Assembly: GCA_964594965.1 (NCBI GenBank)
Contig: CAZQMX010000001.1
Span: forward strand, 25,667-89,666
From: an uncultured Candidatus Saccharibacteria bacterium
GTDB lineage: Bacteria; Patescibacteriota; Minisyncoccia; Portnoybacterales; UBA2143
Length of the DNA: 64,000 nt
Direction: 5' to 3'
Below, piece after piece: positions 3,458-59,567 of the stretch. The notes under the pieces are model-generated. The model did not search any database. It was not told the origin of the DNA and saw only the letters and a list, made by a program, of their open reading frames with translations. Numbering within the stretch: position 1 is the stretch's first letter; every line of letters begins with the position of its first letter. A program made the translations under genes and the position numbers.

Positions 3458-3955
3458 ATGGCTTCAAAGAAAAAAATTGCTAAAGACTTAGGAAAAGCTT
3501 CTAAAGAATTCCTTAATAAGGAAAAGAGAAAGGCGCTTTTAGATTCTTTGAAAAAAGATAAAACCAAATGGTTTTTATGGGTTTCCCAGATAAAAGGAAT
3601 TTTGAAGAATCTTAGCCGGGCTGATATGGTCGGTTTTGCCGGTTTGGTTTTACTTCTGGAACAGAGACCAAAAAGCAGATTTCACAGAGATAATCTAAAA
3701 AGATTTTTAATTAACAAAACCGAGTATTACAAACACTATGATTTTTCCCTGGAAAAGGAATTAAGAAAAGAAAAAAGGAAAAGAGGAAATTTATGGATAA
3801 GCAAAGTTCTGCGCCTTTTTATCAGCCGTTCTTTTCTTGGAATTTTAATCTTAATTCTAATCCTTGGCTTTGTCATTTGGTTTTATCTTGACCGGGAAAG
3901 TTGTTTGGAATTTGTCCAAAAAGTAATTGAACCCTTTTTAAAGGCAATTAGATAA
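3458..3955 (+). CDS. hypothetical protein, K-rich with a C-terminal TM helix
   Basis: ORF only. Confidence 0.25.
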   Translation: MASKKKIAKDLGKASKEFLNKEKRKALLDSLKKDKTKWFLWVSQIKGILKNLSRADMVGFAGLVLLLEQRPKSRFHRDNLKRFLINKTEYYKHYDFSLEKELRKEKRKRGNLWISKVLRLFISRSFLGILILILILGFVIWFYLDRESCLEFVQKVIEPFLKAIR

Positions 3956-9818: not shown

Positions 9819-10349
9819 ATGAAAAGAAAAGGATTGTTTTTGGTCGTTTTGGTTATGTCGTTTTCGTTGATTCTGGGCTGTGGAACACTTGCTAAATTAA
9901 AACAGCCCAAAGGCCCGGAATTCGCAGAAGAGGTTGGAAAAAGATTGTTTACCCGCGAGGATAAAGAAACAGGCGAATATATACCCGTATCTAGAAAATG
10001 GGGTTACAAAGTGCTGGCTTACGGAAAAGGAATCTGGAGAAAGTTGGTAAAAACATCAGCTAACGGGAAAAAGGAGTTCAAAGATATAGAAATCGACTGG
10101 GGCGCCTATTCGATTGAAACAGAGGCTGGACAGACTCAAGTAGATATTTTCATGAATCAAAAGATTTCCCGGGGAAAAATAAGGGAGTTTATGAAAAAGA
10201 AAAAACCCGGAGATACATTTTATCATGGAGGGTACCCAAGTATCCCCAAATCAACTCTCTTTGTTTTCCGGGGAATAAGCGAACTACCGGGACCAATAGG
10301 AGAGTTGGCGGACAAAGGAATCAAATTAACGGTTAGCGAATATTTTTAA
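9819..10349 (+). CDS. lipoprotein, function unknown
   Basis: Signal peptide with a lipobox LILGC. Preceded by a GGAGG ribosome-binding site. Confidence 0.45.
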   Translation: MKRKGLFLVVLVMSFSLILGCGTLAKLKQPKGPEFAEEVGKRLFTREDKETGEYIPVSRKWGYKVLAYGKGIWRKLVKTSANGKKEFKDIEIDWGAYSIETEAGQTQVDIFMNQKISRGKIREFMKKKKPGDTFYHGGYPSIPKSTLFVFRGISELPGPIGELADKGIKLTVSEYF

Positions 10350-10648: not shown

Positions 10649-11236
10649 ATGAATAAGATTGATAAAAGATTAAAAAAAATAAAAGAAGAAGTTATTGAAT
10701 GCCAGAAATGTCCTTTATCTAAATCCAGAACTCTGCCTGTTATTGGACGGGGTAATCATCAGGCAAATATTGTTTTTATTGGCGAAGGCCCGGGATTTAA
10801 TGAGGATAAAACCGGTGTTCCTTTTTGCGGACAAGCCGGCAATATTTTGGATGAACTTTTTAATTCAATTAAATACCAGAGAAAAGATGCTTATGTCTGT
10901 AATATTCTAAAATGCCGACCGCCTAATAATCGCAACCCGGAGAAAAATGAAATTGAGGCCTGTACGCCATATTTAGAAAAACAGGTTAAGATTATTCAGC
11001 CAAAAGTAATTGCAACCATGGGTAATTACGCAACATCATTTATCCTTGAAAAATATGGATTAAAGGATAAGATAGAAGGCATTAGCAGAATTCACGGAAA
11101 AGTTTTTCAGACAGAAGGAATGAAAATTATTCCTCTTTATCATCCGGCGGTAGCAGTTTACAACGCTAATATGAAAGAAACGCTTAAAAAAGATTTTAAG
11201 ATTTTGTCTGAAACTTTGAGCGCGGAGCGCGAATAA
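10649..11236 (+). CDS. uracil-DNA glycosylase, family 4
   Basis: CxxCxL at the N-terminus and GEGPGxxED/GxPFxGxAG motifs. Confidence 0.7.
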   Translation: MNKIDKRLKKIKEEVIECQKCPLSKSRTLPVIGRGNHQANIVFIGEGPGFNEDKTGVPFCGQAGNILDELFNSIKYQRKDAYVCNILKCRPPNNRNPEKNEIEACTPYLEKQVKIIQPKVIATMGNYATSFILEKYGLKDKIEGISRIHGKVFQTEGMKIIPLYHPAVAVYNANMKETLKKDFKILSETLSAERE

Positions 11237-11471
11237 GGTTTTAGTAACAAAATCTTACCCCGTTGTATAACGGGGTAGTCAACTTTATTTAAACATGGTT
11301 AGACCAAGAAAAAGGCGATTAGGATAAATAAGAAATAGAGTTTGTCTAAAGCTCCGAAAATCAAATTTTTGAATCGCTTAGCCCTACCCTCGCTCTGCTC
11401 GGGCAGCGCGCCCACGCCTACTCTTCAAAAATTTATTTTCTGCGCTTTATATACAGGACATCTAGATTAAC

Positions 11472-12605
11472 ATGAGAAGAAATAACAAAAAAGTAGTTGT
11501 TGGATTATCAGGCGGAGTTGATTCCTCCGTCTCTTTATTATGCCTCAAAAAACAAGGGTATGAGCCAATCGGGGTTTCTTTTAAATATGATCTCTGGAAA
11601 AACAAAAAAAACAAACTTAAAGAGAATATCTGCTGTTCTGAAAAATCATTTGCCATTGCCAGAGAAATTTGTCAGAAATTAGATGTTCAATATCATATTA
11701 TTGACGATACGATTGATTTCAAAGATAAAGTCATTGGCTATTTTCTCAAAACCCTAAAAGATAAAAAAACGCCCAATCCTTGTTTAATTTGCAATCGCTT
11801 TGTTAAATTTGATAAATTAATTAAGTTTGCTCATAAAATGGATGTCCAATATATTGCCACTGGCCATTATGCTCGGGTAAAAAAACAAGGCAATTCATAT
11901 CAACTTTTGAAAGCAAAAGACAAAACCAAAGACCAAAGTTACTTTTTAGCCCTTTTGGGACAAAAAGAATTATCAAGAATAATTTTTCCTTTAGGGAATT
12001 ATACTAAAAAGCAAGTTTATCAAATTGCCAAAAAACAAGGTTTTGATGCTTTTGAAAAAACCAAACAGAGTCAGGATTTATGCTTTGTTGCCTCCCAATC
12101 AATCCCATTCTTTTTAGAAGAGAAACTTGGATTAGAGCCGGGGAAAATAGTTGATATTGATAACAATATTTTAGGCGAACACAAGGGTTTATATTTTTAT
12201 ACTATTGGCCAGAGAAAAGGATTAAATCTTTCAGGTGGCCCTTGGTATGTAATTGGCTTTGATAAAATCAAAAATTATCTTATAATAACTAATAAGGAAA
12301 AAGATCCAAATCTTTACAAAAAAGAAATTATTCTTTCTGATTTCAGTTTTGTTTCTGGTCAAATACCAAAGGAAGAAATTAAAGTTAAAGCCAAGACCAG
12401 ATTTAGCCAGAAGCCGGCTTTGGCTAAAATTTATCCTCCTAAAAAGAAAAAATTAAAATTAATTTTTGAGAAATCTCAAAAAGCAATTACCCCCGGCCAA
12501 TGGGCAGTTTTTTATAAAGGCGATGTCTGTCTCGGCGGAGGAATAATATTATCGGAGGTTCGACCTCCGATAGTAAAGTCGGAGGTTCGACCTCCGAAAG
12601 TCTAA
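11472..12605 (+). CDS. mnmA: tRNA-specific 2-thiouridylase MnmA
   Basis: PP-loop SGGVDSS with catalytic cysteines. The C-terminal 18 aa (SEVRPPIVKSEVRPPKV) are encoded by two copies of the 17-nt palindrome. Confidence 0.8.
   Translation: MRRNNKKVVVGLSGGVDSSVSLLCLKKQGYEPIGVSFKYDLWKNKKNKLKENICCSEKSFAIAREICQKLDVQYHIIDDTIDFKDKVIGYFLKTLKDKKTPNPCLICNRFVKFDKLIKFAHKMDVQYIATGHYARVKKQGNSYQLLKAKDKTKDQSYFLALLGQKELSRIIFPLGNYTKKQVYQIAKKQGFDAFEKTKQSQDLCFVASQSIPFFLEEKLGLEPGKIVDIDNNILGEHKGLYFYTIGQRKGLNLSGGPWYVIGFDKIKNYLIITNKEKDPNLYKKEIILSDFSFVSGQIPKEEIKVKAKTRFSQKPALAKIYPPKKKKLKLIFEKSQKAITPGQWAVFYKGDVCLGGGIILSEVRPPIVKSEVRPPKV
12553..12596 (+). repeat. two tandem copies of the 17-nt palindrome CGGAGGTTCGACCTCCG
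   Basis: Exact copies at 12553-12569 and 12580-12596. The same 17-mer occurs at 36234 and, on the other strand, at 51870. Confidence 0.8.
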
Positions 12606-16749: not shown

Positions 16750-17029
16750 TAGGGATATCATAACAAACATTGATTTATTTTTCAAGATAGTATAGGATAA
16801 TGTTGTAAATAGGGGAGGGAGAAAGGCCTTTTCAAAAAAGGCGTTTTTTAAGAGTTTATGCCCGGTAGTAGAATTTCGATAATCGCCAAGAGCGATAAAA
16901 TACCGGAGCATAGTGTTAAAGCTAAGATTATTAATTTATTTCGATAGTAATCATAGAAATTCTATTATTAAAATCGAAATTTCACTACCGGGTATGGCAG
17001 AGAAGAAGACAAAAAAAACAAAGAAAAAA

Positions 17030-19038: not shown

Positions 19039-19119
19039 CTGGGAGTTCGGGTGGGTTCGCCCTGTCATCCGACAGGGCGCCCCGTCGAATGACGGGGCGA
19101 ATCCTCCCACTGGCTCCAG

Positions 19120-19201: not shown

Positions 19202-19267
19202 CGCGTTTTTTATCCAAAACTTGTTTTGGGTATAAAAAAGAGCGTCCCGTCGGATGACGGGACTCAC

Positions 19268-21232: not shown

Positions 21233-22156
21233 ATGGAAACAAACAATCACAATTCACCCAAATACGCCTTTTTATACATGCTTTCTTTAGCAGCCCTGAT
21301 GTTCACCGGCTTTTCAGTCGGCATGATTGCTTTTCAGATAATTAATAAATATGTCCCGGACGCTATTAATCAGTTCAGGCCCAGCTTTGATACCGGAGCG
21401 CTTCGTTTTGCCCTTTCAGCTTTACTAGTAGCAGCGCCGGTATTCTTTATCGTTAACTATTTCATCAACAAAGGTCTTTACAAAGGAGTCCTAACAAAAG
21501 ATTCCGGAGTCAGAAAATGGCTGACATATTTTATTCTCCTGGTCTCTTCGGTTGTTATTCTGGGCTGGTTTATTGGATTGATTAACACTTTTTTGGGAGG
21601 AGAACTAACCCTCAAATTTGCTCTGAAAGCTTTAATTTCAATTATTCTCTCAGCCCTGGCTTTTAGTTTCTATCTCTATGATATCCGTCGTGAAGGCATA
21701 GCAGGGAAGAAAGATGGTGTCGTTAGGATATATTTCTATATCGCCCTGATTATTGTCATCAGCGCCCTATCTTCGGCTTTGGTTTTCGGAGAAAGCCCAA
21801 TGGAAGCCAGAAACAAGAAACTGGACAGCGCAATTTTAAACGACTTCAGCAGCATTAAAAACGCCATAGACCAATATTATAATAGCAATGAGAGCCTGCC
21901 GAAAAATCTATCTGTCTTAGAAGGGGAAGTTGAATTTATGACCCAAGATAGATTAACTGATCCGGAAACGGATTCAAATTACCAATATAATATTTTGAGT
22001 GAAAGTGAATACGAATTATGCGCTAACTTTAGAACTTCCAATCTGGAAGATGACGATGGAATGAACGAATTTTATAGAGAAACCTGGCCGCATCAGAAAG
22101 GCAGGCAGTGCATTGAAAAGAGTGTTGAAGATCCAAAACCCACACCAATCAGATAA
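21233..22156 (+). CDS. hypothetical membrane protein (4 TM N-terminal domain, DUF5671-like) with a soluble Cys-containing C-terminal domain
   Basis: ORF and hydropathy only. N-terminus SPKYAFLYMLSLAAL. Confidence 0.3.
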   Translation: METNNHNSPKYAFLYMLSLAALMFTGFSVGMIAFQIINKYVPDAINQFRPSFDTGALRFALSALLVAAPVFFIVNYFINKGLYKGVLTKDSGVRKWLTYFILLVSSVVILGWFIGLINTFLGGELTLKFALKALISIILSALAFSFYLYDIRREGIAGKKDGVVRIYFYIALIIVISALSSALVFGESPMEARNKKLDSAILNDFSSIKNAIDQYYNSNESLPKNLSVLEGEVEFMTQDRLTDPETDSNYQYNILSESEYELCANFRTSNLEDDDGMNEFYRETWPHQKGRQCIEKSVEDPKPTPIR

Positions 22157-22162
22157 TTAGAA

Positions 22163-22193
22163 AACACCCCGCAGTACTGCGGGGTGTTTTTTG
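22163..22193 (+). terminator. strong rho-independent terminator
   Basis: ACACCCCGCAGTACTGCGGGGTGT followed by TTTTTTG. Confidence 0.6.
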
Positions 22194-22202
22194 TTTCTCC
22201 AC

Positions 22203-26352: not shown

Positions 26353-26426
26353 TATTCGTAGGCATTTTTAATTTTTTGTCTGAATTTTAGAGCCGTAGGC
26401 GAATAAAATTTAGGAACAAAACATTA

Positions 26427-26506
26427 ACCCGCCCAAATTTTCGCGGAGCGAAAAATTGTGGCGGGTGCTCAATTCTGATAACTAAAAATTCTTCTTCGCC
26501 CAGGGC
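26427..26506 (+). promoter_or_regulatory. candidate rplJ (L10) leader: long hairpin CCCGCCCAAATTTTCGC-GGAG-GCGAAAAATTGTGGCGGG, then a TTCGCCC-AG-GGCGAA hairpin with a T-tract
   Basis: Two strong hairpins read directly, 25-105 nt upstream of the rplJ ATG. L10-L12 autoregulatory leaders are known in many bacteria. Assignment is an inference. Confidence 0.35.
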
Positions 26507-26532
26507 GAATTGAATTTTTAGACACAATTGGC

Positions 26533-27045
26533 ATGATTACCAAAGAAAAGAAAAAAGAAATAGTTAAGGATTTAATCGACAAACTATCCCGCCAGAAATC
26601 GGTTGTCTTTTTTGACTATACCGGCCTGAAGGTTAATCAAAGCCAGGAATTAAGAAGCAAATTAAGAGAAGAAGAAATTGATTGCCAGATTAGTAAAAAA
26701 ACCCTAATTGATTTGGCTTTAGAAAAAGCCGGTTTAAAAGATATTAAGGTCAAGGAATTAGCCGGTCGGATTGGTTTGGTTTTTGGATACAAGGACGAAG
26801 TTTTACCAGCCAAGATTCTATATGATTTTTCAAAGGAAAATAAGGATCTTAAAATTATTTCCGGTTTAATTGACGGCGAATTCTTAGGAAACGAGGCTAT
26901 TCTTGAATTAGCCAAATTACCCTCTAAACAGGAATTACTTTCAAAACTGGTTGGCAGTATTTCATCTCCAATCTTCGGATTACATAATACCTTACAAGGT
27001 AATTTACAAAAGTTGATTTATATATTAAAGTCGTGTAAAGTATAA
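26533..27045 (+). CDS. rplJ: ribosomal protein L10
   Basis: [12 protein letters not shown]...VVFFDYTGL, a typical L10 N-terminus. Confidence 0.8.
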
Positions 27046-27064: not shown

Positions 27065-27559
27065 ATGGCAGAAGAAAACAAGAAGGAAGAAACTCCTAAA
27101 GAGGAGGCTCCTAAAAAAGAAGAGGCGCCAACACCTGAGAAAAAAGAAAAGGAAGTTCCCGCCCCGTCGGCGGACAAGGAGGTGCCAAAGAAATTCAAAG
27201 ACTTAGTCAAACAAATTGAAGAACTAAGTGTTTTGGAATTAGCCGAATTGGTTAAAGTTCTAGAGGATAAGTTTGGTGTCAGTGTCCCGCAGTACAGCGG
27301 GATTGCTCCGGCTGCCGGAGGCGCTCCAGCTGAAGGCGGAGAAGAAAAAAGCATCTTTGACATCGAGCTCAAAAGCTCTGGTGACCAGAAAATCAGTGTT
27401 ATTAAGGTGGTTAAAGAAATTACAGACCAAGGATTAAAAGAAGCTAAAGAAATTGTTGATAGCGCTCCGAAAGTTATCAAACAGGGCGTTAAAAAAGAAG
27501 AAGCCGAAGAAATCAAAAAGAAACTAGAAGAAGCCGGCGCAACAGTAGAATTAAAATAA
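27065..27559 (+). CDS. rplL: ribosomal protein L7/L12 with an E/K/P-rich N-terminal extension
   Basis: C-terminal domain KFGVSVP...[56 protein letters not shown]. Confidence 0.8.
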
Positions 27560-27567
27560 CTATTTAT

Positions 27568-27660
27568 CCAAATCTTGATTTGGTAGTAAATAGTTATCCT
27601 GAGGAGCAAAGCGACGAAGGATCTATAACTAACAGATTCTTCGCTAACGCTCAGAATGAC
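27568..27660 (+). repeat. CCAAATCTTGATTTGG hairpin plus MITE-like element, copy C
   Basis: GTTATCCTGAGGAGCAAAGCGACGAAGGATCT / AGATTCTTCGCTAACGCTCAGAATGAC. Between the rplL stop and the ATG at 27680. Confidence 0.7.
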
Positions 27661-28890: not shown

Positions 28891-28988
28891 GGGTATGAAG
28901 TGAATGATTGTGGATAAAAGTGGGGATAAGTATATAAAATTGTGGATAACTGACTATTTTGTCTTAATCTTTGATTCAGATACAAAAT

Positions 28989-29055
28989 ATCATCCTGAGG
29001 AGCGAAGCGATCGAAGGATCTGTACAAACAGATTCTTCGCTTTGCTCAGAATGAC
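28989..29055 (+). repeat. MITE-like palindromic element, copy D
   Basis: ATCATCCTGAGGAGCGAAGCGATCGAAGGATCT / AGATTCTTCGCTTTGCTCAGAATGAC. 38 nt upstream of mraZ, inside the operon leader. Confidence 0.7.
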
Positions 29056-29092
29056 AATTCTAAAAAACAAAAGTAATAAAATAATAATTGGC

Positions 29093-29524
29093 ATGCTCAT
29101 TGGGGAATACAAACACATACTTGATGCTAAAAAAAGATTGGCTATTCCAGTCAAATTCAGGCGTTTTTTCAGCCAAGGAGCAGTCATTACCCGCGGAATT
29201 GATAATTGTTTGATTCTTTATCCGCTTAAGGAATGGGAAAGTATGGCTGGTAAATTAGGTCAGTTGCCAGCCAGCCAGATTGAAGCAAGGAGTTTTGCTA
29301 GAATTATGCTGGCTGGGGCTATGGCAGTAAAATTTGACCGATTGGGTCGAATTCTTGTTCCGGACTATCTGAAAAAATATGCTTTTTTGAAAAAGGGCGC
29401 TGTCATTATCGGCTTATACAATCGTCTTGAAATCTGGGCAGAAGAGAAATGGGAGACCTATCGAGGAAAGGCTGAAAAGGAGGTCGGCGACTTAGCTGCT
29501 AAACTAGGGGAATTGGGCTTGTAA
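29093..29524 (+). CDS. mraZ: transcriptional regulator MraZ
   Basis: MLIGEYKHILDAKKRLAIPVKFR, a typical MraZ N-terminus. Start trimmed from the track ORF, which translated the repeat. Confidence 0.75.
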   Translation: MLIGEYKHILDAKKRLAIPVKFRRFFSQGAVITRGIDNCLILYPLKEWESMAGKLGQLPASQIEARSFARIMLAGAMAVKFDRLGRILVPDYLKKYAFLKKGAVIIGLYNRLEIWAEEKWETYRGKAEKEVGDLAAKLGELGL

Positions 29525-29525
29525 T

Positions 29526-30443
29526 ATGCACCAGCCTGTCCTTCTAAACGAAGTTCTAAAATATCTTAATCCAGAATCAAACCAGGACTTTATTGACTGC
29601 ACTTTTGGCTGGGGAGGCCATTCTTTAGAAATACTAAAAAGAAACAAACCCAATGGTAAGGTTTTAGGAATAGAACGAGACAAAAAAGTTTTAGAGATTC
29701 TAGAAAAGGAAAGAAATGAAAAAAGATTAATTTTGGTTAATAATAATTTTTCTGACTTAGAGAGAATTGTTCAGGAAAATGAATTTCTGTCGGTTAACGG
29801 AATTCTCTTTGACCTGGGATTATCTTCCTGGCAAATAGAGAAAAGCGGAAAGGGATTTAGTTTTATGAGAGATGAACCACTTTTAATGAATTATGAATCA
29901 GGAATTAGGAATCAAGAATTAACAGCCGCGACAATCATCAACCAGTGGAGTAAAGAAGATTTAGAACAAATACTAAAAGAATACGGAGAAGAAAGATATG
30001 CCAGAAGAATAGCCCGAAAAATACATCAGAGCAGACAAAAACAGAAAATTGAAACAACTGGCCAATTAGTTGAAATTATTAAAAAAGCAGTTCCAATTAA
30101 TTATCAAAGAAGAAGAATCCCCCGAAAAAAAGCAAGCTTTTCACGGGGCAGGCATTTTGCAACTAAGACATTTCAGGCGTTAAGAATTGCGGTTAATGAC
30201 GAATTAAATAATCTGGAAAAAGCTCTTCCCCAAGCATTAAAGATTTTGAATAAGAAAGGTCGAATAGTAATTATCTCTTTCCACTCTTTAGAAGACAGAA
30301 TTGCTAAAAACTTTTTTCGTCAGAAAGCCAGAGAAGGGGAATTAGAAATTTTAATAAAAAAGCCCATTAGGCCAAGTCAGGAAGAAATTAAATTAAATCC
30401 TCGCAGCCGAAGCGCTAAATTAAGAGCGGCTGTGAAAATATAA
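29526..30443 (+). CDS. rsmH: 16S rRNA (cytosine1402-N4)-methyltransferase RsmH (MraW)
   Basis: HQPVLLNEVL...DCTFGWGGHS signature. Confidence 0.85.
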   Translation: MHQPVLLNEVLKYLNPESNQDFIDCTFGWGGHSLEILKRNKPNGKVLGIERDKKVLEILEKERNEKRLILVNNNFSDLERIVQENEFLSVNGILFDLGLSSWQIEKSGKGFSFMRDEPLLMNYESGIRNQELTAATIINQWSKEDLEQILKEYGEERYARRIARKIHQSRQKQKIETTGQLVEIIKKAVPINYQRRRIPRKKASFSRGRHFATKTFQALRIAVNDELNNLEKALPQALKILNKKGRIVIISFHSLEDRIAKNFFRQKAREGELEILIKKPIRPSQEEIKLNPRSRSAKLRAAVKI

Positions 30444-30444
30444 A

Positions 30445-30774
30445 ATGTTCTCGCACTACGCCAAATCAAAAAAATTCAGGAGGGGGCACAATCGCGGCTT
30501 GGCTCTTTTAAGCGTTTTAGTTTTTTTCTCAGTAATTTGTCTGGGATTTTTTTATTTAATCCAGACTAATAGTTTGGTTGGCCAGAGCTATAAGATCAGA
30601 GAACAGAAAAAGTATCTCGGAGAACTTGAAAACCAAAGGCATGATTTAGAAATTGAAATTGCCAGGATGCAATCACCAGCCAGCCTGGAAGAAATGATTC
30701 AATCATTGGATTTAATTGAAATCGGGCAAGTAATTTATCTTGAGAGTGAAAAGGCCATGGCAACGATAAGATGA
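30445..30774 (+). CDS. ftsL: cell division protein FtsL-like (single TM plus coiled coil)
   Basis: Position between rsmH and ftsI. 109 aa with a TM helix then a heptad-rich segment. Confidence 0.4.
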   Translation: MFSHYAKSKKFRRGHNRGLALLSVLVFFSVICLGFFYLIQTNSLVGQSYKIREQKKYLGELENQRHDLEIEIARMQSPASLEEMIQSLDLIEIGQVIYLESEKAMATIR

Positions 30775-32495
30775 AAAAAGATTGGCGGATTCATCTTCTA
30801 GTTATTATCATTTTCCTGATTGGGAGCGGGGTATTAACCCGCTTGTTTTCTCTCCAGATTTTTCGTTATGACTATTACAGCGCCTGGGCCAAAGACCAGC
30901 ATGAACTTTATCAAGAATTGGTTCCTCAACGGGGAGAAATCTTTATGCAGGATTTCTCAGCCAAGAAGAGAAATAATCAGAACCAGTATTATCCTTTGGC
31001 AATTAACAAGGAATTCCAACAAGTCTATGCTATTCCCCAGGATATTGACCAGGACAAAACAGAGGAAATATCCGAGAAACTCTCTTCTCTTATTGATTTA
31101 GATAAGGAAATAATCTTGAGCCGGATTAGCAAGCCAGATGATCCCTATGAACCATTAAAACATAAAATTAGTCAGGAGATTGCCAATCAGGTAGAAGAAC
31201 TTAATATTTCCGGAATAAAATTAGGGCCGGAAATCTGGCGGTATTATCCCAATGACGAATCAACCTGTCATTTAATCGGTTTTGTTGGCATGAGCGAAAA
31301 AGGAGACATTGGCCAATATGGATTAGAAAGATATTATCAGGATGAATTAGGAGGCAAGGCTGGTTTTATTGCCGGGCAAAAAGATACTGCCGGCTATTGG
31401 ATTCCTTCTTTGAGAGAAGATTTAGAACCAGCCGAAGACGGAGCCGATATTATCCTGACCATTGACCAAAATATCCAATTCAGGGCAGAAAGAGAATTAG
31501 AGAGAGTTATAGAAAGATGGCAGGCAGAAGCCGGGACAATTATTGTCCTTGAACCGGAAACCGGGGCAATCAGAGCAATGGCCAATTGGCCAACCTTTAA
31601 CCCAAACCAATACATGAAGGTTGAAGAAATTGATTCTTTTCTTAACCCTTCGGTCCAGAAAGTTTATGAACCAGGTTCTGTTTTTAAGGCCATTACCATG
31701 GCAGCCGGATTGGACAGCGGTAAAATTACTCCGGAAACAACCTATTACGATAAGGGAAGAATAACAATTAAAGGAAGTTTTATCAGTAATGTTGATGGCA
31801 GAACCTATGATTACCAAAATATGACTCAAGTTCTTGAAAAATCAATTAATACCGGGGCAGTTTTTGTCCAACAAGAAATTGGTCAGGAGATTTTCGCTGA
31901 CTATGTCCAGAGATTCGGCTTTGGCCAGACAACCGGAGCCGATTTAATCGGAGAAGTCAACGGCAATATCTCCAATCTTTTTACTGGTCGGGAAATCAAT
32001 TTAGCCACAATTTCATTTGGCCAGGGAATTACCGCTACGCCCTTGGGAATGCTTTCTGCTGTTGGGGCAATTGCTAATCAGGGAAAACTAATGCGTCCTT
32101 TTGTTGTTGAAAAGACAATCTGGCCGGATGGCAAGGAAGAAACCACCCAACCAGAAGTATTAAGGGAAACAATTTCTTCTCAATCAGCCAGGGAATTAAC
32201 CAAAATGCTTGTCAGCGCCGTTGAAAACGGCTATGGTAGACCTGCCCGGATTAGCGGCTATGATATTGCCGGCAAGACCGGTACAGCCCAGATAGCTGAT
32301 TTGGAAAAGGGCGGCTATACCGAAGAAACCATTCATAGCTTTATTGGTTACGCCCCTGCTTTTGACCCTAAGTTTGCTATTTTAATAAAGATTGATAAGC
32401 CCCAGGGTATTCGCTTTGCTTCTGATTCAGTTGGTCCGGTTTTCAGGGAATTAGCTGAGTATATTATTAACTATTTAGAAATACCTCCAGAGTAA
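30771..32495 (+). CDS. ftsI: penicillin-binding protein (FtsI/PBP2-type transpeptidase)
   Basis: SxxK (GSVFK), SxN-like and KTGT motifs, with an N-terminal TM helix. Confidence 0.8.
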   Translation: MKKDWRIHLLVIIIFLIGSGVLTRLFSLQIFRYDYYSAWAKDQHELYQELVPQRGEIFMQDFSAKKRNNQNQYYPLAINKEFQQVYAIPQDIDQDKTEEISEKLSSLIDLDKEIILSRISKPDDPYEPLKHKISQEIANQVEELNISGIKLGPEIWRYYPNDESTCHLIGFVGMSEKGDIGQYGLERYYQDELGGKAGFIAGQKDTAGYWIPSLREDLEPAEDGADIILTIDQNIQFRAERELERVIERWQAEAGTIIVLEPETGAIRAMANWPTFNPNQYMKVEEIDSFLNPSVQKVYEPGSVFKAITMAAGLDSGKITPETTYYDKGRITIKGSFISNVDGRTYDYQNMTQVLEKSINTGAVFVQQEIGQEIFADYVQRFGFGQTTGADLIGEVNGNISNLFTGREINLATISFGQGITATPLGMLSAVGAIANQGKLMRPFVVEKTIWPDGKEETTQPEVLRETISSQSARELTKMLVSAVENGYGRPARISGYDIAGKTGTAQIADLEKGGYTEETIHSFIGYAPAFDPKFAILIKIDKPQGIRFASDSVGPVFRELAEYIINYLEIPPE

Positions 32496-32626
32496 AAAAA
32501 TAACCAATCACCAAGATACAAGATACAAACAAATCTCAAACATCAATAATCAATCACCAAAAATTAATTTATTTGATTATTGATTATTATTTGGTTATTG
32601 TTTCTTGTTTCTTGATTATTTGAAAA
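32496..32626. repeat. AT-rich imperfect palindrome built from 7-nt periodic repeats (CAAGATA... / ...TTTCTTG)
   Basis: The left arm has heptamers ending in CAA. The right arm has heptamers TTGATTA/TTTCTTG, which are their reverse complement. Confidence 0.55.
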
Positions 32627-33895
32627 ATGCGTAGCATTTTACAATATATTCTAAAAATTCTGGCTAAAGTAGTCCTATATCGGTACAAACCGGAAATTGT
32701 TGCTGTAACCGGTAACGTTGGCAAAACCAGCACCAAAGAAGCTATTGCCCAGGTTTTAGAAAAATTCTTTCGGGTCAGACAAAACAAGAGGAATTACAAT
32801 AATGAGATTGGAGTGCCTTTAACAATAATTGGCTTAGAGACCGGCGGGAGTTCATTAATTGCCTGGTTGAAAAATTTTTTACTCGCTCTTAGAACAATTT
32901 TATGGAGAGGTGATTATCCGGAAATTCTGATTCTGGAGATGGGCATTGATAAGCCCGGAGATATGGAATATTTAATGAGTTTTATCCCGGTTGACGTCGC
33001 CGTTATCACCGCTATTGGAGAATTTCCTGTTCATCTTGAATTTTTCCCTGGAAAAGGAAAATTGGTTCAAGAAAAAGCCCTTTTGGCTAAATCACTTGAC
33101 GGAGAAGGCCAGGTGGTTCTAAATTACGATGATTTATCTGTTCGGGCGATTGGCGATGAGTTGCCCGAGGGATTAAAAAAGATTCAATACGGATTTGGTC
33201 AGGCAGCGAATTTAAGAATTATGAATTATGAATTAGGAATTAGGAATTTAGAAAAAAAAGATTTTGGCATAAGTTTCAAATTAGAATATGGAGGAAGTAT
33301 TGTCCCGGCCCAGATAAAGGGGGCAACCGGAAAACAACATGCCTTTGCCCTTGCCGCTGCCGCCGGAGTTGGATTGTATTTCGGCCTTAATCTGGTTGAG
33401 ATTTCAGGAGCTTTCAAAAAACATAGATCCTTACCCGGCCGAACCAACCTCTAAAAAGGAATTAAACAAACCTGGATTATTGATGATAGTTACAATGCTT
33501 CGCCTTTGGCAACTTTAGCTTCTCTGGAAATTCTAAACCAATTTTCAGAAGGAAAAAGAAGGAGAATTGCAGTCCTGGGTGATATGCTTGAATTAGGGAG
33601 CAAAACCGAAGAAGGTCATCGCCAAGTTGGAAAAAAAGTAAAAGAAACTGCTGATTTGCTTTTTACTGTTGGCAGCCGGGCTATCTTTATCGCTGACCAA
33701 GCCAGAAAAGCAGGAATGAAAAAAGAAAATATTTTTGAGTTCCAGACCTCAAAACAAGCCGGACTAGCAGTCCAAAAACAACTAATCAGCCAGGATATTA
33801 TTCTAGTTAAAGGGTCGCGCTCAATCCATACGGAAGAAGTTACCAGAGAAATTATGGCTCATCCGGAAAAAGCCGATGAATTGTTGGTAAAATAA
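32627..33895 (+). pseudogene. murF: UDP-MurNAc-tripeptide--D-Ala-D-Ala ligase MurF interrupted by a single in-frame TAA at 33452-33454
   Basis: Mur ligase P-loop TGNVGKTSTKE in ORF 1. DDSYNASP and the C-terminal domain are in ORF 2, which is in the same frame. The spacing GR-(14 aa)-DDSYNA matches intact MurF if the stop is read as sense. This may be a sequencing error or a genuine nonsense codon. Confidence 0.6.
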
Positions 33896-41336: not shown

Positions 41337-41906
41337 GGTGTTTTCGTCAATGTATTCCAAATCTGAGCCGGTTGATAGGCCTCGCGCTAACCGGCTCGTT
41401 TTAATTTCCAGCCCCCCAAGCAATCGTTCAATATACAAAGCGGTGGTGTCGCCCTCGGTCGTCGGGCTAAAAGCGAATATAATTTCCTTTATCCCTGGTT
41501 GGGATTTTTTAATTCTAGCAATTAATTGATTAATTTTCAGGCTTTCCGGACCAATGCCATTTCCCGGAGAAATTAATCCGCCTAAAACATGATAAAGCCC
41601 GTGATATTGTTTGGTTTTTTCAATTGGAATAATATTCAATAGATTTTCAACCAAGCAAAGAATTGATTTATCTCTTTTTCCATCAAGACAAATTGGACAG
41701 AATTTCTTGCTTTTTTCAGTCAGGTTATAGCATTGAGGACAGAGATTGATTTCGGTTTTAAGGTTTTTAATAGCAAAAGAAAAATTATCCAATTCTTTTT
41801 GATTCTGATTAAGCAAATGAAAAACCATCCGGGTGGCGGATCTTGGCCCGATTTCCGGTAGTTTAGATAATTCATTAATAAGTTTTTGAACTGATTTGGG
41901 AAACAT
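41307..41906 (-). CDS. recR: recombination protein RecR
   Basis: HhH N-terminus, a C4 zinc finger (CPQC...CPIC) and a Toprim domain. Confidence 0.85.
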   Translation of the reverse strand: MFPKSVQKLINELSKLPEIGPRSATRMVFHLLNQNQKELDNFSFAIKNLKTEINLCPQCYNLTEKSKKFCPICLDGKRDKSILCLVENLLNIIPIEKTKQYHGLYHVLGGLISPGNGIGPESLKINQLIARIKKSQPGIKEIIFAFSPTTEGDTTALYIERLLGGLEIKTSRLARGLSTGSDLEYIDENTLSSALLGRK

Positions 41907-41929
41907 GCCAATTTTTTCTAAATTTTAAT

Positions 41930-41967
41930 TTAGATAAAAAATTGAGCATCCCGCAGTATTGCGGGAT
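41930..41967 (-). terminator. hairpin ATCCCGCAGTATTGCGGGAT with T-tracts on both sides
   Basis: Perfect 8-bp stem lying between the dnaB stop and the recR start. Confidence 0.45.
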
Positions 41968-41976
41968 CACTCTTTT

Positions 41977-51264: not shown

Positions 51265-51349
51265 CTGAAATTTATTACGGGTTCGCCCTGTCATCCGACG
51301 GGGCGCCCTATCGGATGATAGGGCGATTCCCTCTACCCCTACCATGATA

Positions 51350-51392
51350 AAAACCCGCTTGTCTGTTTTTCCAGACAGGCGGGTTTTTGTAT
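51350..51392 (+). terminator. strong rho-independent terminator
   Basis: CCCGCTTGTCTG-tttttc-CAGACAGGCGGG followed by TTTTTG. Confidence 0.6.
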
Positions 51393-51444
51393 TCTCTCAA
51401 TGGTGTTTATTCATCTTATTTATGCTAAAATATTGGATAAGAAA

Positions 51445-54771: not shown

Positions 54772-54796
54772 TAACCTTTCTACTACAATTCCCATA

Positions 54797-54902
54797 TTTT
54801 GGCTACGACTTTGCAAAAATTTCTTGATGTATAGTATACATCTGCGAAATTTCTGCTTCGTCTCGCTCAAAATCTGAAAATTTCGTAGCGAAAATTATTA
54901 TC
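54797..54902 (+). promoter_or_regulatory. conserved promoter/leader module upstream of the dacB-like gene (paralogous to 24689..24794)
   Basis: ATATTTTGGCT...TGTATAGTATACAT...TCTCGCTCAAAATCTGAAAATTTCGTAGCGAAAATTATTATC. Confidence 0.5.
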
Positions 54903-54923
54903 TAAAAGAGCTCAAGAGCAAAT

Positions 54924-56022: not shown

Positions 56023-57075
56023 ATGCTTATGCCTGATATATTTTTTATCTCAAGAATCATGGGATTAGGAGCAATTTCTTTTCTTTTTGCTTTGGCCTGG
56101 ACGCCCTTCTTGGTTCGTTTTCTTGAAAAGTACAAAATGGGCAAGCAAATCAGGACAGAGGGGGTCCCATACTTCGCCAAACATCACAGCAAGAAAGAGG
56201 GGACTCCAACCATGGGCGGAATCTTAATTTGGATGACAGTTTTGTTTTTAACCCTGCTTTTCTGGATTTTAGCTAAAGCCGGGGACGGAACAATTCTTCA
56301 AAACTTTGATTTCTTGACAAGGAAAGAAACTCTTCTTCCTTTGGGCGCCCTGATCGCCTCGGCCTTAGTTGGTTTAGGGGATGATTTGCTGGGAATTTTT
56401 AAGATTGGTTCTAGTGGCGGCGGGCTTAAAATCCGCCATCGTCTTTTAATCTATACCGCTATTGCCGTTTTCGGCGCCTGGTGGTTTTTTGTTAAGTTGG
56501 AATGGGATTTGGTCCATGTTCCTTTTCTGGGAGATTTTAATATCGGTCTTTGGTATATTCTCGTTTTTATCTTTGTTTTAGTTGCGACTGCTTTTTCAAC
56601 AAATCAAACCGATGGACTTGATGGATTAGCCGGCGGGATTCTTTTAATTGGTTTTGCTTCTTACGGGGCGATTGCCTTTTCCCAGGGCAAAATGGATTTA
56701 GCTGCTTTTTGCGGAGTAATTATTGGGGCCCTATTGGCCTTCCTCTGGTTTAATATTTACCCAGCCAGATTTTTTATGGGTGATACCGGGTCAATGTCAT
56801 TGGGAATTACCCTGGGCATTATTGCCATGCTGACAAACTATTTTCTTCTTCTTCCTTTAATCTTTTTTATTCCGGTAGTAGAATCGGTTTCGACTGCAGT
56901 CCAGATGCTTTCAAAAAAAATCAGAAAGAAAAAAATATTTCTTTCGGCGCCTATTCATCATCATTTTGAAGCTAAAGGATGGCATGAGACAAAGGTGACT
57001 ATGCGTTTCTGGATGATTAATGGAACCATGGCGGTGATAGGATTAATTCTTGTTTTTATTGAAGTAATCATTTAG
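56023..57075 (+). CDS. mraY: phospho-N-acetylmuramoyl-pentapeptide transferase MraY
   Basis: DGLDGLAGG and PIHHHFE motifs. Confidence 0.85.
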   Translation: MLMPDIFFISRIMGLGAISFLFALAWTPFLVRFLEKYKMGKQIRTEGVPYFAKHHSKKEGTPTMGGILIWMTVLFLTLLFWILAKAGDGTILQNFDFLTRKETLLPLGALIASALVGLGDDLLGIFKIGSSGGGLKIRHRLLIYTAIAVFGAWWFFVKLEWDLVHVPFLGDFNIGLWYILVFIFVLVATAFSTNQTDGLDGLAGGILLIGFASYGAIAFSQGKMDLAAFCGVIIGALLAFLWFNIYPARFFMGDTGSMSLGITLGIIAMLTNYFLLLPLIFFIPVVESVSTAVQMLSKKIRKKKIFLSAPIHHHFEAKGWHETKVTMRFWMINGTMAVIGLILVFIEVII

Positions 57076-57120
57076 GGCTTTCTCTAAAATTTCTGCGAAA
57101 TTTTAGCTAGAAAACCTTTA

Positions 57121-57219
57121 CCCCGCCCCCTATACTCTGACTCAATCATTAGAGAATTATACATAGAAACAGATTATCCGTATTATCAAACAAGAAATCA
57201 GAGTAAAGGGGGCGGGGTG
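57121..57219. repeat. 99-bp element bounded by 20-bp GC-rich terminal inverted repeats (CCCCGCCCCCTWTACTCTGA)
   Basis: Left arm 57121-57140, right arm 57198-57219, one mismatch in 20. The only C5GC5 run in the window. Confidence 0.55.
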
Positions 57220-57286
57220 CTCAATGTTGTAGCTAAATTTATTTCGCTACACTTGAGTTTCGCTCATAAATTTAGACAACATTCGC

Positions 57287-58381
57287 ATGAAAGTCCATCA
57301 ACCAGACTATTTTTTCATCTCAGCTGTTTTTGTTCTGGTTGTTTTTGGTTTAGTTGTTTTATCAAGCGCTTCGGTTGTCATTTCCCAGGAAACCTTTGGA
57401 GAAAATTACTATTTCCTCAAGCACCAGCTTATTTACGGCCTTTTAATTGGATTAGTTGCTTTTTTTGTTGTTCAGAGAATTAATTACCGCTTTTGGCAGA
57501 AACTAGCTTTTCCTTTAATGATTTTGGGTTTAATTCTTTTGGCGCTGGTTTTTCTGCCGGGAATAGGATATGGCCATGGAGAAGCCAAACGTTGGATAAG
57601 TTTAGGTCCCTTTTCTCTTCAGCCCTTTGAATTTATTAAATTAAGTTTTGTTCTTTACTTGGCAGCGCTCTTGAGTAGAAGAGGGGAAAGCAAAGAGGTA
57701 ATTAAAGAGAGTTTAATTCCTTTTCTGGTCAGCTTTGTTGTTATTAGCATCCTGGTTCTTTTCCAGCCCAATATGAGCGCTTTTATCTTAATTTCTTTAA
57801 TTGCCGGCCTAGTATATTTCCTGGCCGGAGTTAAGTTTTCCTATTTAATATCATTAGGGGTATTGGCTTTATCCAGTTTTTTTGTTTTAATAAAGGTAAC
57901 ACCTTATCGGATGAGAAGGTTAACGGTATTCCTCCATCCGGAGATTGATCCGCAGGGGATTGGCTATCAGATTAATCAGGCCCTTTTGGCTATTGGTTCA
58001 GGCGGTCTTTTCGGATTAGGTCTGGGGCACAGCATCCAAAAATGGAAATACCTGCCGGAAGTTATTGGTGATTCCATTTTCGCCATTATCGCTGAAGAAC
58101 TTGGATTAATTGGGGCTGGTCTTCTGGTTGGTTTATTCATCTTTCTGTTCTGGCGGGGATTAAAAATTGCTAAAAACGCTCCTGATAAATTTGGCTATCT
58201 TTTAGCTGGTAGTATTACGGGCTGGCTCTTCTTTCAGGTTTTTATCAATATTATGGCAATCTGTGGAATGATTCCTTTAACCGGCATGCCCTTGCCTTTT
58301 ATCAGTTACGGCGGTTCTGCTTTAGCGATTTCTCTGGCAGCGGTTGGTATAGTAACTAATATTTCTAAGTATACAAACTAG
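57287..58381 (+). CDS. ftsW: cell division/peptidoglycan glycosyltransferase FtsW (SEDS family)
   Basis: 10 TM helices and SEDS motifs. Sits in the dcw cluster. Confidence 0.8.
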   Translation: MKVHQPDYFFISAVFVLVVFGLVVLSSASVVISQETFGENYYFLKHQLIYGLLIGLVAFFVVQRINYRFWQKLAFPLMILGLILLALVFLPGIGYGHGEAKRWISLGPFSLQPFEFIKLSFVLYLAALLSRRGESKEVIKESLIPFLVSFVVISILVLFQPNMSAFILISLIAGLVYFLAGVKFSYLISLGVLALSSFFVLIKVTPYRMRRLTVFLHPEIDPQGIGYQINQALLAIGSGGLFGLGLGHSIQKWKYLPEVIGDSIFAIIAEELGLIGAGLLVGLFIFLFWRGLKIAKNAPDKFGYLLAGSITGWLFFQVFINIMAICGMIPLTGMPLPFISYGGSALAISLAAVGIVTNISKYTN

Positions 58382-58460
58382 AATAATGAATAATGAATCA
58401 CGAATAAGGAATAGATTTAATTCTTGATTCCTAATTCTTAATTCTTAATTCTGATTCCTA
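58382..58460. repeat. inverted arrays of 7-nt periodic repeats (GAATAAT... / ...ATTCTTA)
   Basis: GAATAATGAATAATGAATCACGAATAAGGAAT | ATTCTTGATTCCTAATTCTTAATTCTTAATTCTGATTCC. Confidence 0.6.
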
Positions 58461-59567
58461 ATGAGAATAGTATTTGCCGGTGGCGGCACTGGCGGACATA
58501 TTTATCCGATTATTGCCGTAGCCAGACAATTAAAACAGGGACAAATACCCTTGGAAATGTTCTTTCTTGGACCAGTTGGTCCTTATCGTCAGGAACTGGA
58601 AAAAGAGGGGATTATTGTCAAGTCGGTCCTGGCCGGAAAATTAAGAAGATATTTTTCCATTTGGACAATTTTGGATATTTTAAAGTTTCCTCTTGGTCTA
58701 ATTCAATCTCTTTGGTATTTGTTTATCCTAATGCCGGACATTGTTTTTTCCAAAGGGGGATACGGCAGTGTTCCGATTACCCTGGTCTCCTGGACATATT
58801 TCATCCCAATCATTTCTCATGAATCAGATGCTGTTCCGGGTCTGGCTAATCGCATTGGAGCATTTTTTTCAAAAAGAATTGCTCTTTCATTTCAATCGGC
58901 CGGGAAGTATTTTTCTTCTAAAAAAACTGCTTTGGTTGGTAATCCAATCCGTTCAGAGATTGCCCAGATTTGTCTTTCAACTGATTCTCAAGAAAAAGAA
59001 AAAGGCAAACAACTTTTTAGCATTTCCGGTCAAAAGCCAATTATTTTGATTTTAGGCGGCAGTCAGGGGGCAGAGAAAATTAATCGATTGGTCTTATCCG
59101 TTTTGCCCAGTCTCTTGGAGAAATATGAGGTTATTCATCAATCCGGGCCAAAAAATTATGAGAAGATAAAAAGCTGGTTAAAGCAAATGCCGGTTAATTA
59201 CCATCTCTTTCCATTTTTGGATGAAAACCAGATTGCCCACGCCTATCTTGTTTCTAATCTAATCATTTCCCGGGCCGGAGCAGGAAGTATTTCAGAAATT
59301 GCCGCTTGCGGAAAGCCAAGCATTTTAATCCCAATTCCTAAATCAGCCTCTGACCATCAGAGAAAAAATGCTTTTGATTACGCTCGGGCCGGAGCAACAT
59401 CAGTTCTGGAACAGGATAATTTAACGCCTAATTTGCTCTTAAACGAAATATCAGAGATACTGGATAATCCGGAATTAGCCCAGAAAATGTCTTTGAATGC
59501 CAAGAATTTTTCCCGGCCCCGAGCCGCCCAAAAAATCGCAGAGGAAATAGTTGAGATGGGGAGGTAG
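58461..59567 (+). CDS. murG: UDP-GlcNAc--MurNAc-pentapeptide GlcNAc transferase MurG
   Basis: GGGTGGHIYP N-terminal motif and the GT28 C-terminal domain. Confidence 0.85.
   Translation: MRIVFAGGGTGGHIYPIIAVARQLKQGQIPLEMFFLGPVGPYRQELEKEGIIVKSVLAGKLRRYFSIWTILDILKFPLGLIQSLWYLFILMPDIVFSKGGYGSVPITLVSWTYFIPIISHESDAVPGLANRIGAFFSKRIALSFQSAGKYFSSKKTALVGNPIRSEIAQICLSTDSQEKEKGKQLFSISGQKPIILILGGSQGAEKINRLVLSVLPSLLEKYEVIHQSGPKNYEKIKSWLKQMPVNYHLFPFLDENQIAHAYLVSNLIISRAGAGSISEIAACGKPSILIPIPKSASDHQRKNAFDYARAGATSVLEQDNLTPNLLLNEISEILDNPELAQKMSLNAKNFSRPRAAQKIAEEIVEMGR

Follow-up and report, generated by a model that had tools for sequence, protein, structure and literature searches.

What kind of element is the long inverted repeat that lies between mraY and ftsW in a 64-kb stretch of bacterial DNA (hereafter the window, meaning the whole stretch analysed)? 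The repeat takes up 99 nucleotides (nt) of the 211-nt spacer separating the two genes in a Candidatus Portnoybacteria genome, and a preliminary description had read it as a possible miniature inverted-repeat transposable element (MITE), as a terminator or attenuator, or as an RNA processing hairpin. Analysis of the spacer and of related loci leads to a different answer. The inverted repeat is the middle hairpin, H2, of a 215-base three-hairpin module, whose local representative is here called copy F, and the module is a dispersed, modular, structurally conserved intergenic element. Homologues of FtsW assign the host to Candidatus Portnoybacteria, within the Patescibacteria. The spacer is base-for-base the same in an independent JGI contig and in a Logan assembly, and is therefore not an assembly artefact.

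The arms of H2, ACCCCGCCCCCTATACTCTGA at 57120-57140 and TCAGAGTAAAGGGGGCGGGGT at 57198-57218, are 21 nt long, lie 57 nt apart and are complementary at 20 of 21 positions (95%), the sole mismatch opposing A57132 to A57206. With spacing limited to 300 nt, the inverted-repeat finder places H2 among the top two inverted repeats of the entire window. The stem includes a 12-bp G+C clamp, and the 11-mer CCCCGCCCCCT is confined, within the 64 kb, to the two arms, in a window averaging 34-41% G+C. The interior (57141-57197) is 57 nt long and AT-rich, with about 26% G+C as counted by hand. Folded as a 102-nt RNA, the plus strand reaches -41.4 kcal/mol (z -7.9) and the minus strand -47.0 kcal/mol (z -7.3), and none of 200 shuffles is as stable in either case. 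The preliminary description thus proved accurate as to the near-perfect pairing, the AT-rich loop, the unusual composition of the arms and the predicted stability of the hairpin. The palindrome runs past the arms, with indels, as GCGAAAT..TTTAGCTAGAA on both sides, and 7 of 1000 shuffles match its score. The whole spacer is predicted to fold into three hairpins (57084-57106, H2 and 57222-57285) at -69.9 kcal/mol (z -7.6). The location had been given as the division and cell wall (dcw) cluster; the repeat does lie between mraY and ftsW, but the cluster is not contiguous, mraZ, rsmH and ftsI being found ~25 kb from the site, at 28.9-32.5 kb, and the site is a mraY-ftsW-murG sub-cluster.

Copy F spans the full spacer, from the stop codon of mraY to the ATG of ftsW (57073-57289), and is matched end to end (57071-57289, 137.7 bits, E 5.6e-25) by a covariance model of the module, R1. 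Its parts follow in the order 5' tail, AT-rich hairpin H1, linker TAGAAAACCTTT, H2, linker GCTCAAT, AT-rich hairpin H3, 11-nt tail and ATG. They are listed below with the flanking genes; L031 is a Candidatus Jorgensenbacteria locus carrying a homologous copy.

56023-57075, plus strand: mraY, the upstream gene (open reading frame and Pfam labels Glycos_transf_4 and MraY_sig1); the module opens with its stop TAG, 57073-57075
57073-57083, plus strand: 5' tail of the module, TAGGGCTTTCT (family consensus TAAAGGnnTTnGTC), aligned with AGGGCTTTCTC of L031 and with the tails of other copies
57084-57106, plus strand: H1, CTAAAATTTC-TGC-GAAATTTTAG, from inverted repeat and fold
57107-57119, plus strand: linker 1, CTAGAAAACCTTT, conserved and unpaired, aligned in all full copies
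57120-57218, plus strand: H2, the 99-nt inverted repeat, from repeat finder and fold
57219-57232, plus strand: linker 2, GCTCAATGTTGTAG, of which GCTCA(A/T) is conserved in the family, from alignment and fold
57233-57275, plus strand: H3, CTAAATTTAT / ATAAATTTAG with a 23-nt loop, from inverted repeat
57276-57286, plus strand: 3' tail, ACAACATTCGC, 11 nt from H3 to the ATG, from alignment
57287-58381, plus strand: ftsW, the downstream gene (FTSW_RODA_SPOVE), followed by murG; its ATG is the final triplet aligned to the module model

In the predicted fold, 57223-57230 pair with 57276-57283 and lengthen H3. The motif formerly described as a separate ftsW leader is a real hairpin, but it is H3 of the same module as H2. 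Copy F is atypical in two respects. H1 lacks the GC-rich tip GCCGTAGGC present in other copies, being cut down to TGC, and H2 measures 99 nt instead of the usual 20-40 nt, with only its outer clamp, ACCCCG...CGGGGT, common to the other copies. Inflated AT-rich H2 interiors, mutually unrelated, are also found in two copies of a Jorgensenbacteria-like genome, L104, located between scpB and dac and between prfA and smc, which makes H2 expansion a recurrent event, and not a separate element. H2 of copy F has likely grown to 99 nt by taking up an AT-rich interior, and the tip of H1 has likely been lost.

Related loci had been gathered by an FtsW scan of a genome collection, the matches listed being mostly distant relatives. 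L031 was recognized by a short-word search of the fetched loci, through the exact 17-nt match TAGAAAACCTTTACCCC to the linker 1 region of copy F. The L031 copy sits directly after the mraY stop, in the same layout as copy F, and reads AGGGCTTTCTC, AT-rich hairpin, TAGAAAACCTTT, H2 clamp ACCCCCTCACTCG..CGAGTGAGGGGGT, GCTCA, a second AT-rich hairpin, a short tail and ATG; its H2 is only 31 nt long. A profile was built from these two spacers, and the copies that it found in the source genome were confirmed by R1. The covariance model finds at least 11 sense copies in 4 genomes from two Patescibacteria lineages. The association of H2 with something repeated, already suspected, thus holds for the larger module, but not for the 20-mer arm, of which no second copy exists in the sequence searched. 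Five copies lie within ~83 kb of the source genome, a count that covers less than 10% of the genome, and are located before rplJ, rpmA, recR and ftsW and after the UDG gene. The other six reside in three Jorgensenbacteria-like genomes, two of them directly after mraY; locations in this group include sites before smc, before the D-Ala-D-Ala carboxypeptidase gene (dac) and after dnaX, and a reduced copy after mraY. All 11 of 11 copies share the orientation of the following gene, and most full copies end at the first base of that gene. R1 scores are 137.7 bits for F, 174.8 for J, 148.6 for R, 144.4 for L031 and 101.4 for L106a, a copy in another Jorgensenbacteria-like genome; the L104 copies score 91 (prfA-smc) and 84.2 (scpB-dac), and partial copies 26-49. 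The other copies of the source genome are as follows.

26367-26535, plus strand: full copy J, R1 174.8 bits, ending at the rplJ ATG (26533); rplJ was identified from its translation and from the neighbouring L7/L12 gene
11195-11289, plus strand: partial copy W6, H1 and H2 (H2 at 11257-11276), R1 49.4 bits, nhmmer E 7e-7; the UDG gene ends inside it (stop at 11236)
41904-41976, minus strand: partial copy W5, R1 42.6 bits, between the dnaB stop and the recR ATG (41906-41904; neighbours labelled DnaB and RecR by Pfam), made of H2 (41948-41967), GCTCAAT, a short H3 (41918-41933) and an 11-nt tail
L094 14498-14654, ~2.3 kb beyond the end of the window: copy R, before rpmA, in a divergent intergenic region, found with the profile and R1

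Aligned copies define the family. The 5' tail TAAAGGnnTTnGTC frequently supplies or follows the upstream stop codon; H1 is a 10-bp AT stem, usually with a GCC..GGC tip; linker 1 reads ..A(A/G)CAAAACCTTT (..AAAACCTTT in the form used to test membership); H2 has the clamp ACCCCG..CGGGGT and an interior of 4 to ~150 nt; linker 2 reads GCTCA(A/T)..; H3 is a 10-bp AT stem with a variable loop; the tail is 11 nt long and ends in ..GC, next to the first base of the following gene. H1 and H3 are alike, and share CTAAA(A)TTT(C) arms. The distribution is narrow in the sequences covered. R1 gave no match in sister Portnoybacteria loci, nor in 79 other loci from Patescibacteria, Bacillota and other groups, and nothing convincing was added when the window was scanned with filters off. 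A profile of 7 copies used with nhmmer returned no additional genomes, and blastn found no match among phage or plasmid records. The gapped clamp pattern is missing in viral contigs, where TAGAAAACCTTTACCCC has four chance matches devoid of hairpins. Weak R1 matches at 27555-27658, 51275-51402 and 16823-16959 do not have the module architecture, and a weak nhmmer match in the locus L041 falls inside the murD coding sequence. Rfam 15 recognizes only tRNAs in the window, and permissive scans of the F, J and L031 copies gave sub-threshold noise. Signal recognition particle RNA, 6S RNA, tRNA-like or Y RNA, integron attC sites and the MraZ operator were dropped for want of an Rfam match or of defining motifs.

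That the hairpins are the conserved trait is indicated by covariation, computed on the 7 best distinct copies. In an alignment fitted to the model, which biases it towards pairing, 95.1% of cells are paired, against 79.4 ± 1.7% in shuffles. Both sides have changed in 17 of 34 pairs, against 7.6 ± 1.7 in shuffles, none of 500 shuffles reaching the observed value, and pairing falls to 57% or less when partners are slid out of register. Each of the three stems contributes. Pairing amounts to 98.6% in H1 (helix 1), 98.2% in H2 (helix 3) and 91.4% in H3 (helix 4), and both partners have changed in 5 of 10, 4 of 8 and 6 of 10 pairs, respectively. Linkers stay constant while the three stems covary. 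Non-Watson-Crick pairs are G-U on the sense strand (three, plus two in W6), and A-C pairs are absent.

How the module came to lie between mraY and ftsW can be followed in relatives. A look at orthologous mraY-ftsW spacers had been advised from the start; once made, it shows that mraY and ftsW share 4 nt (ATGA, in ...ATT ATA TGA AAG...) in three sister species with 82-83% identical FtsW, and that the copy after mraY in L031 is homologous. Spacers of 9 nt are found in two relatives at 73% and of 4 nt in one at 69%, and an unrelated spacer of 148 nt in the L087 lineage, at 74%. Given the overlap in the sister species, the module was probably gained in the source lineage. Deletion in silico of 57072-57286 recreates ...ATC ATA TGA AAG, the sister arrangement, with EVII as the C-terminus of MraY and no duplication; neither does the junction of copy F, compared with the sister species, show a duplication, nor does the module carry terminal inverted repeats. 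Copy F was thus likely gained where mraY and ftsW formerly overlapped, and their translational coupling was thereby likely broken. MraY is 84% identical to that of the sister species L083 and 55% identical to that of L031, figures that speak against a recent transfer of the gene. Presence is variable elsewhere. L083 and L087 have no module at the rpmA site, and relatives of L104 have none between scpB and dac or between prfA and smc. In L104 itself the 5' tail of the module encodes, at these sites, the C-terminus of the upstream protein, and the relatives with empty sites have similar native sequence there, which could be target microhomology or the remnant of a deletion. Copies inside one genome differ at most stem positions, and no recent burst is visible. 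No transposase domain, Y1_Tnp or other, was found among the 30 window open reading frames (ORFs) scanned, 7 of which lack a Pfam match, or among the Pfam labels of L092 and L094.

Some spacers at the same junctions are unusual in their own right. The 148-nt mraY-ftsW spacer of the L087 lineage (9853-10000) has perfect AT-rich palindromes (GAAATGAAAATATATTTTCATTTC) and CGCTCATTTCGC motifs; it cannot be aligned to the module, and was rejected as a member for lack of detectable homology. L104, 89% identical to L031, has a 781-nt spacer (11063-11843) where L031 has the module after mraY; in it are a Cys-rich ORF of 64 aa, whose Shine-Dalgarno motif is GGAGG, several G+C-rich hairpins and a canonical terminator. 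The post-mraY site of L031 and L104 seems to be a hot spot of spacer turnover. In L031 (366-2390) Peptidase_S11 (D-Ala-D-Ala carboxypeptidase) and MraY domains are joined in one 674-aa ORF, which may be a fusion or a sequencing frameshift; the same two genes overlap by 4 nt in L106.

The end of the module next to the following gene has features of a promoter in part of the family. TATAAT-N6-ATG occurs in four Jorgensenbacteria-like copies (L031, L104 scpB-dac, L106a and L106 mraY), and in three of them (L031, L104 scpB-dac and L106a) TTGCG(C/T)-N17 precedes TATAAT, placing the -35 inside the loop of H3. Across the Jorgensenbacteria-like copies TATAAT lies 6-8 nt from the next gene, and copy L106a precedes tRNA-Gln, and not an ORF, at equal spacing, as expected for a transcription start rather than for a translation signal. 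This suggests a promoter within H3 and the tail in copies of the TATAAT type. Copy R fills a divergent intergenic region, and must therefore contain a promoter. No Shine-Dalgarno motif is found in the 3' tail of copy F, nor before the ATG in any copy. In the window -10 hexamers peak at -12 from the ATG, and in L104 and L106 several start codons have one 12-14 nt upstream. TGnTATAAT is found 6-7 nt before the ATG of many genes (starts at 3458, 10649, 13918, 36301, 45820 and others), and Shine-Dalgarno-like motifs precede only ~11 of 62 window genes. From the peak at -12 and the minority of genes with a Shine-Dalgarno motif, leaderless transcription seems common in the source genome. Copy F has GACAAC in register where the Jorgensenbacteria-like copies have TATAAT, and a consensus scan of the spacer found promoter-like sites not above chance.

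The reading preferred here, about which confidence is evenly balanced, is that the dispersed module of which the inverted repeat is H2 acts as a portable hairpin-plus-promoter cassette at gene junctions, tentatively a form of gene punctuation. The upstream message would carry H1 and H2 at its 3' end, and there the hairpins may block 3' exonucleases or act as a stop devoid of U residues. H3 and the tail would carry a promoter giving rise to a leaderless mRNA or a tRNA precursor, its -10 separated from the start of the next gene by 6-8 nt. In copy F, where the -10 is degenerate, the module would probably be mainly a very stable intercistronic RNA structure uncoupling ftsW from mraY. A bolder version, speculative and rather doubtful, pictures a self-propagating stop-to-start cassette of candidate-phyla-radiation bacteria, which would insert between tightly packed or overlapping genes, close the upstream frame, and start transcription at the first base of the next gene from its own promoter, the three hairpins serving both spread as single-stranded DNA and formation of RNA 3' ends. 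If true, such a cassette would rewire operons in genomes nearly devoid of intergenic space. Strong covariation, exact stop-to-start span and presence where sister genomes overlap their genes are noteworthy in combination. The module offers a testable case of uncoupling of translationally coupled cell-wall and division genes, as are mraY and ftsW, and may show how leaderless transcription units originate.

Several observations weigh against the cassette. Covariation in a DNA palindrome may also be maintained by hairpin-based gene conversion, or by a transposase reading single-stranded DNA hairpins, and does not prove a function as RNA. The tail hexamers of the source genome (GACAAC in F, GACACA in J, GATAAA in R, GAAAAA in W5) are poor -10 elements in comparison with the usual TGnTATAAT, no U-tract follows H2, and the promoter, terminator and RNA roles are all deduced from sequence. 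The empty genome at the L104/L106 scpB-dac site keeps sequence resembling the 5' end of the module, and loss instead of gain may have occurred there. Copy F and the L031 copy both follow mraY and have near-identical linkers in spite of the 55% identity of MraY, a coincidence that simple random insertion does not account for.

Other explanations fare differently against the same evidence. A free-standing MITE with 20-bp terminal inverted repeats would fit the small size, the near-perfect 21-nt ends and the AT-rich non-coding interior of H2, but is very improbable. Target-site duplications are missing around the 99-bp unit, whose flanks, CCTTT|ACCCC and GGGGT|GCTCA, are conserved linkers of the larger module. 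The 20-mer arm, searched for with up to 5 mismatches, has no second copy in ~83 kb of the source genome and ~0.9 Mb of related loci, and no match in viral contigs; metagenome contigs gave one single-arm chance match in an unrelated contig of 48% G+C, a search that did not return the source contig and is silent on the remaining genome. Moreover, the outer 8 bp of H2 and both flanks are homologous to the short loop-only hairpins of other copies, which implies that the arms are a grown stem, and not transposon ends. An intrinsic terminator or attenuator separating the transcription of mraY and ftsW is improbable too. Like a Rho-independent terminator, H2 has a G+C-rich stem directly downstream of a gene, with its 12-bp clamp and -41 kcal/mol, and I-shaped terminators, which lack U residues, are a debated proposal for some phyla. 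The canonical form is not supported, however, by a 57-nt loop, where 3-8 nt are the criterion, nor by the 3' flank GCTCAATG, which is not U-rich and reads GCTCAATGTTG on the plus strand and AAAGGTTTTCT on the minus strand, with four T only after 5 nt. A consensus scan finds no terminator at 57076-57286, and the genome uses canonical terminators of different appearance, a stem plus a T-run, at 22152-22199 and 51349-51388. Termination at H2 would also leave ftsW and murG without an obvious promoter. The third early suggestion, that H2 is an RNA processing hairpin, may still apply.

The module may instead be a selfish palindromic repeat of REP/BIME, REPIN or IS200/IS605-PATE type, its single-stranded DNA hairpins being moved by a trans-acting transposase and kept for mobility, with no host function beyond tolerated side effects. 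This is a possibility of some substance, though on balance an unlikely one. Consistent with it are the variable presence at four sites among related genomes, the occurrence of partial and rearranged copies, and the 5 copies in ~83 kb, each located between genes or across the 3' end of one. The module is quasi-palindromic throughout, H1 resembling H3 and the minus strand scoring 45-55 bits; it lacks terminal inverted repeats, and copy F a duplication at its junction, as in IS200/IS605; sense transcription of the hairpins is not expected for copy R, between divergent genes. Set against this, the identifiable ORFs of the window and of the annotated flanking loci include no transposase, the divergence of stems within a genome leaves no sign of a recent burst, the fixed distance to the next gene and the uniform co-orientation of the 11 copies are not expected from insertion alone, and G-U pairs are restricted to the sense strand. 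The same G-U pairs, the three covarying stems with conserved unpaired linkers, which are the usual signature of structured RNA, and an H2 of variable length with a conserved base would suit a purely RNA-level cis element. Devoid of a promoter, this would be an intercistronic leader presenting an AUG without Shine-Dalgarno motif, or would be cleaved just upstream of the AUG to leave a leaderless message; the lack of a Shine-Dalgarno motif before every ATG and the location of most copies between co-directional genes agree with it. The proposal is nonetheless quite unlikely, since one copy precedes a tRNA gene and not an ORF, one lies between divergent genes, and four have TATAAT at leaderless spacing, three of them with a -35 as well. 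No Rfam family matches, and the unrelated downstream genes (ftsW, rplJ, rpmA, recR, smc, dac, amidohydrolase) argue against a regulator specific for a ligand or a protein.

In model bacteria, views of how operons are punctuated, how stable mRNAs are and how promoters arise owe much to dispersed structured intergenic repeats, REP, BOX, ERIC and Correia elements among them. A literature search found no comparable element described in Patescibacteria. The kinds closest to the module are BOX, Correia/ERIC and REP/BIME/PATE elements, none of which shares sequence with it. BOX elements of Streptococcus pneumoniae are made of boxA, boxB and boxC modules, and vary through the copy number of boxB. Like the module, they are dispersed, non-coding, modular intergenic repeats of ~100-250 nt with conserved ends and a variable middle; their transcripts are predicted to fold into stable stem-loops, and the expression of neighbouring genes can be affected. 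The module differs in sequence and in varying through growth of the interior of one hairpin, and BOX elements, unlike the module, are not placed at a fixed distance from a start codon. Correia elements of Neisseria are cleaved by RNase III and can provide promoters directed outwards. Correia, ERIC and IRU elements are, as the module, small palindromic intergenic repeats, co-transcribed, able to form long hairpins and variably present among related strains. They have clear terminal inverted repeats, a TA duplication and near-identical copies within a genome, whereas the module shows neither terminal repeats nor target-site duplication, its copies differ at most stem positions and still pair, and its span is exactly stop-to-start. 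Stabilisation of mRNA by 3' hairpins of REP type has been reported, as for malE-malF. REP, BIME, REPIN and PATE elements resemble the module as extragenic palindromes of operon spacers, with hairpins and conserved flanking nucleotides, inserted in an orientation-specific manner, with neither terminal inverted repeats nor duplication. On the other hand, neither the 64-kb window nor the annotated flanks yielded a RAYT, TnpA or TnpB gene, and the module has no conserved tetranucleotide of GTAG type; three hairpins with an embedded -35/-10 pair are not a REP feature.

Other sequences of the window recall parts of the module. The aspS-dac spacer (54772-54923) has AT-rich palindromes and the module-like motifs CTGCGAAATTTCTGC, GAAAATTTCGTAGCGAAAAT and, before the ATG, GCTCAAGAGCAAAT. 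It may be a degenerate or rearranged relative of the module; R1 gives it no score. Between copy W6 and mnmA (11472) a long hairpin at 11341-11450 (-40.8 kcal/mol), AT-rich in its basal stem and G+C-rich at the tip, looks like an inflated H3. The strongest fold of the window, -66 kcal/mol, belongs to a G+C-rich double-hairpin repeat, GGGTTCGCCCTGTCATCCGACAGGGCGCCCCGTCGAATGACGGGGCGAATCC (and a variant), found directly after tRNA-Thr and tRNA-Lys (19052-19105 and 51281-51333), with a half copy before tRNA-Thr(ggt) (19242-19263); its TTCGCCC..GGGCGAA clamp resembles the tip of H3 in the rplJ and rpmA copies.

Two copies are also covered by ORFs on the minus strand, a called ORF of 58 aa (protein P0121; L094 14482-14664) spanning the rpmA copy, and a similar one of 46 aa (26387-26527) in the rplJ copy. 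A protein-database search with such minus-strand ORFs returned only the ORF itself. The peptide QFALGEEE.LVI..EHP, common to the two, probably reflects conservation of the DNA, and the ORFs are probably spurious; masking of the module is advised in annotation, as it yields ORF calls of this sort.

As to the wider gene neighbourhood, the division and cell-wall genes of the window are split in two groups 22 kb apart, mraZ, rsmH, a small ORF, ftsI and a Mur ligase at 28904-33895, and mraY-ftsW-murG at 56023-59567, and murD is absent between mraY and ftsW. The Mur ligase is found as two ORFs, one with the M domain (32627-33454) and one with the C domain (33584-33895), 129 nt apart.

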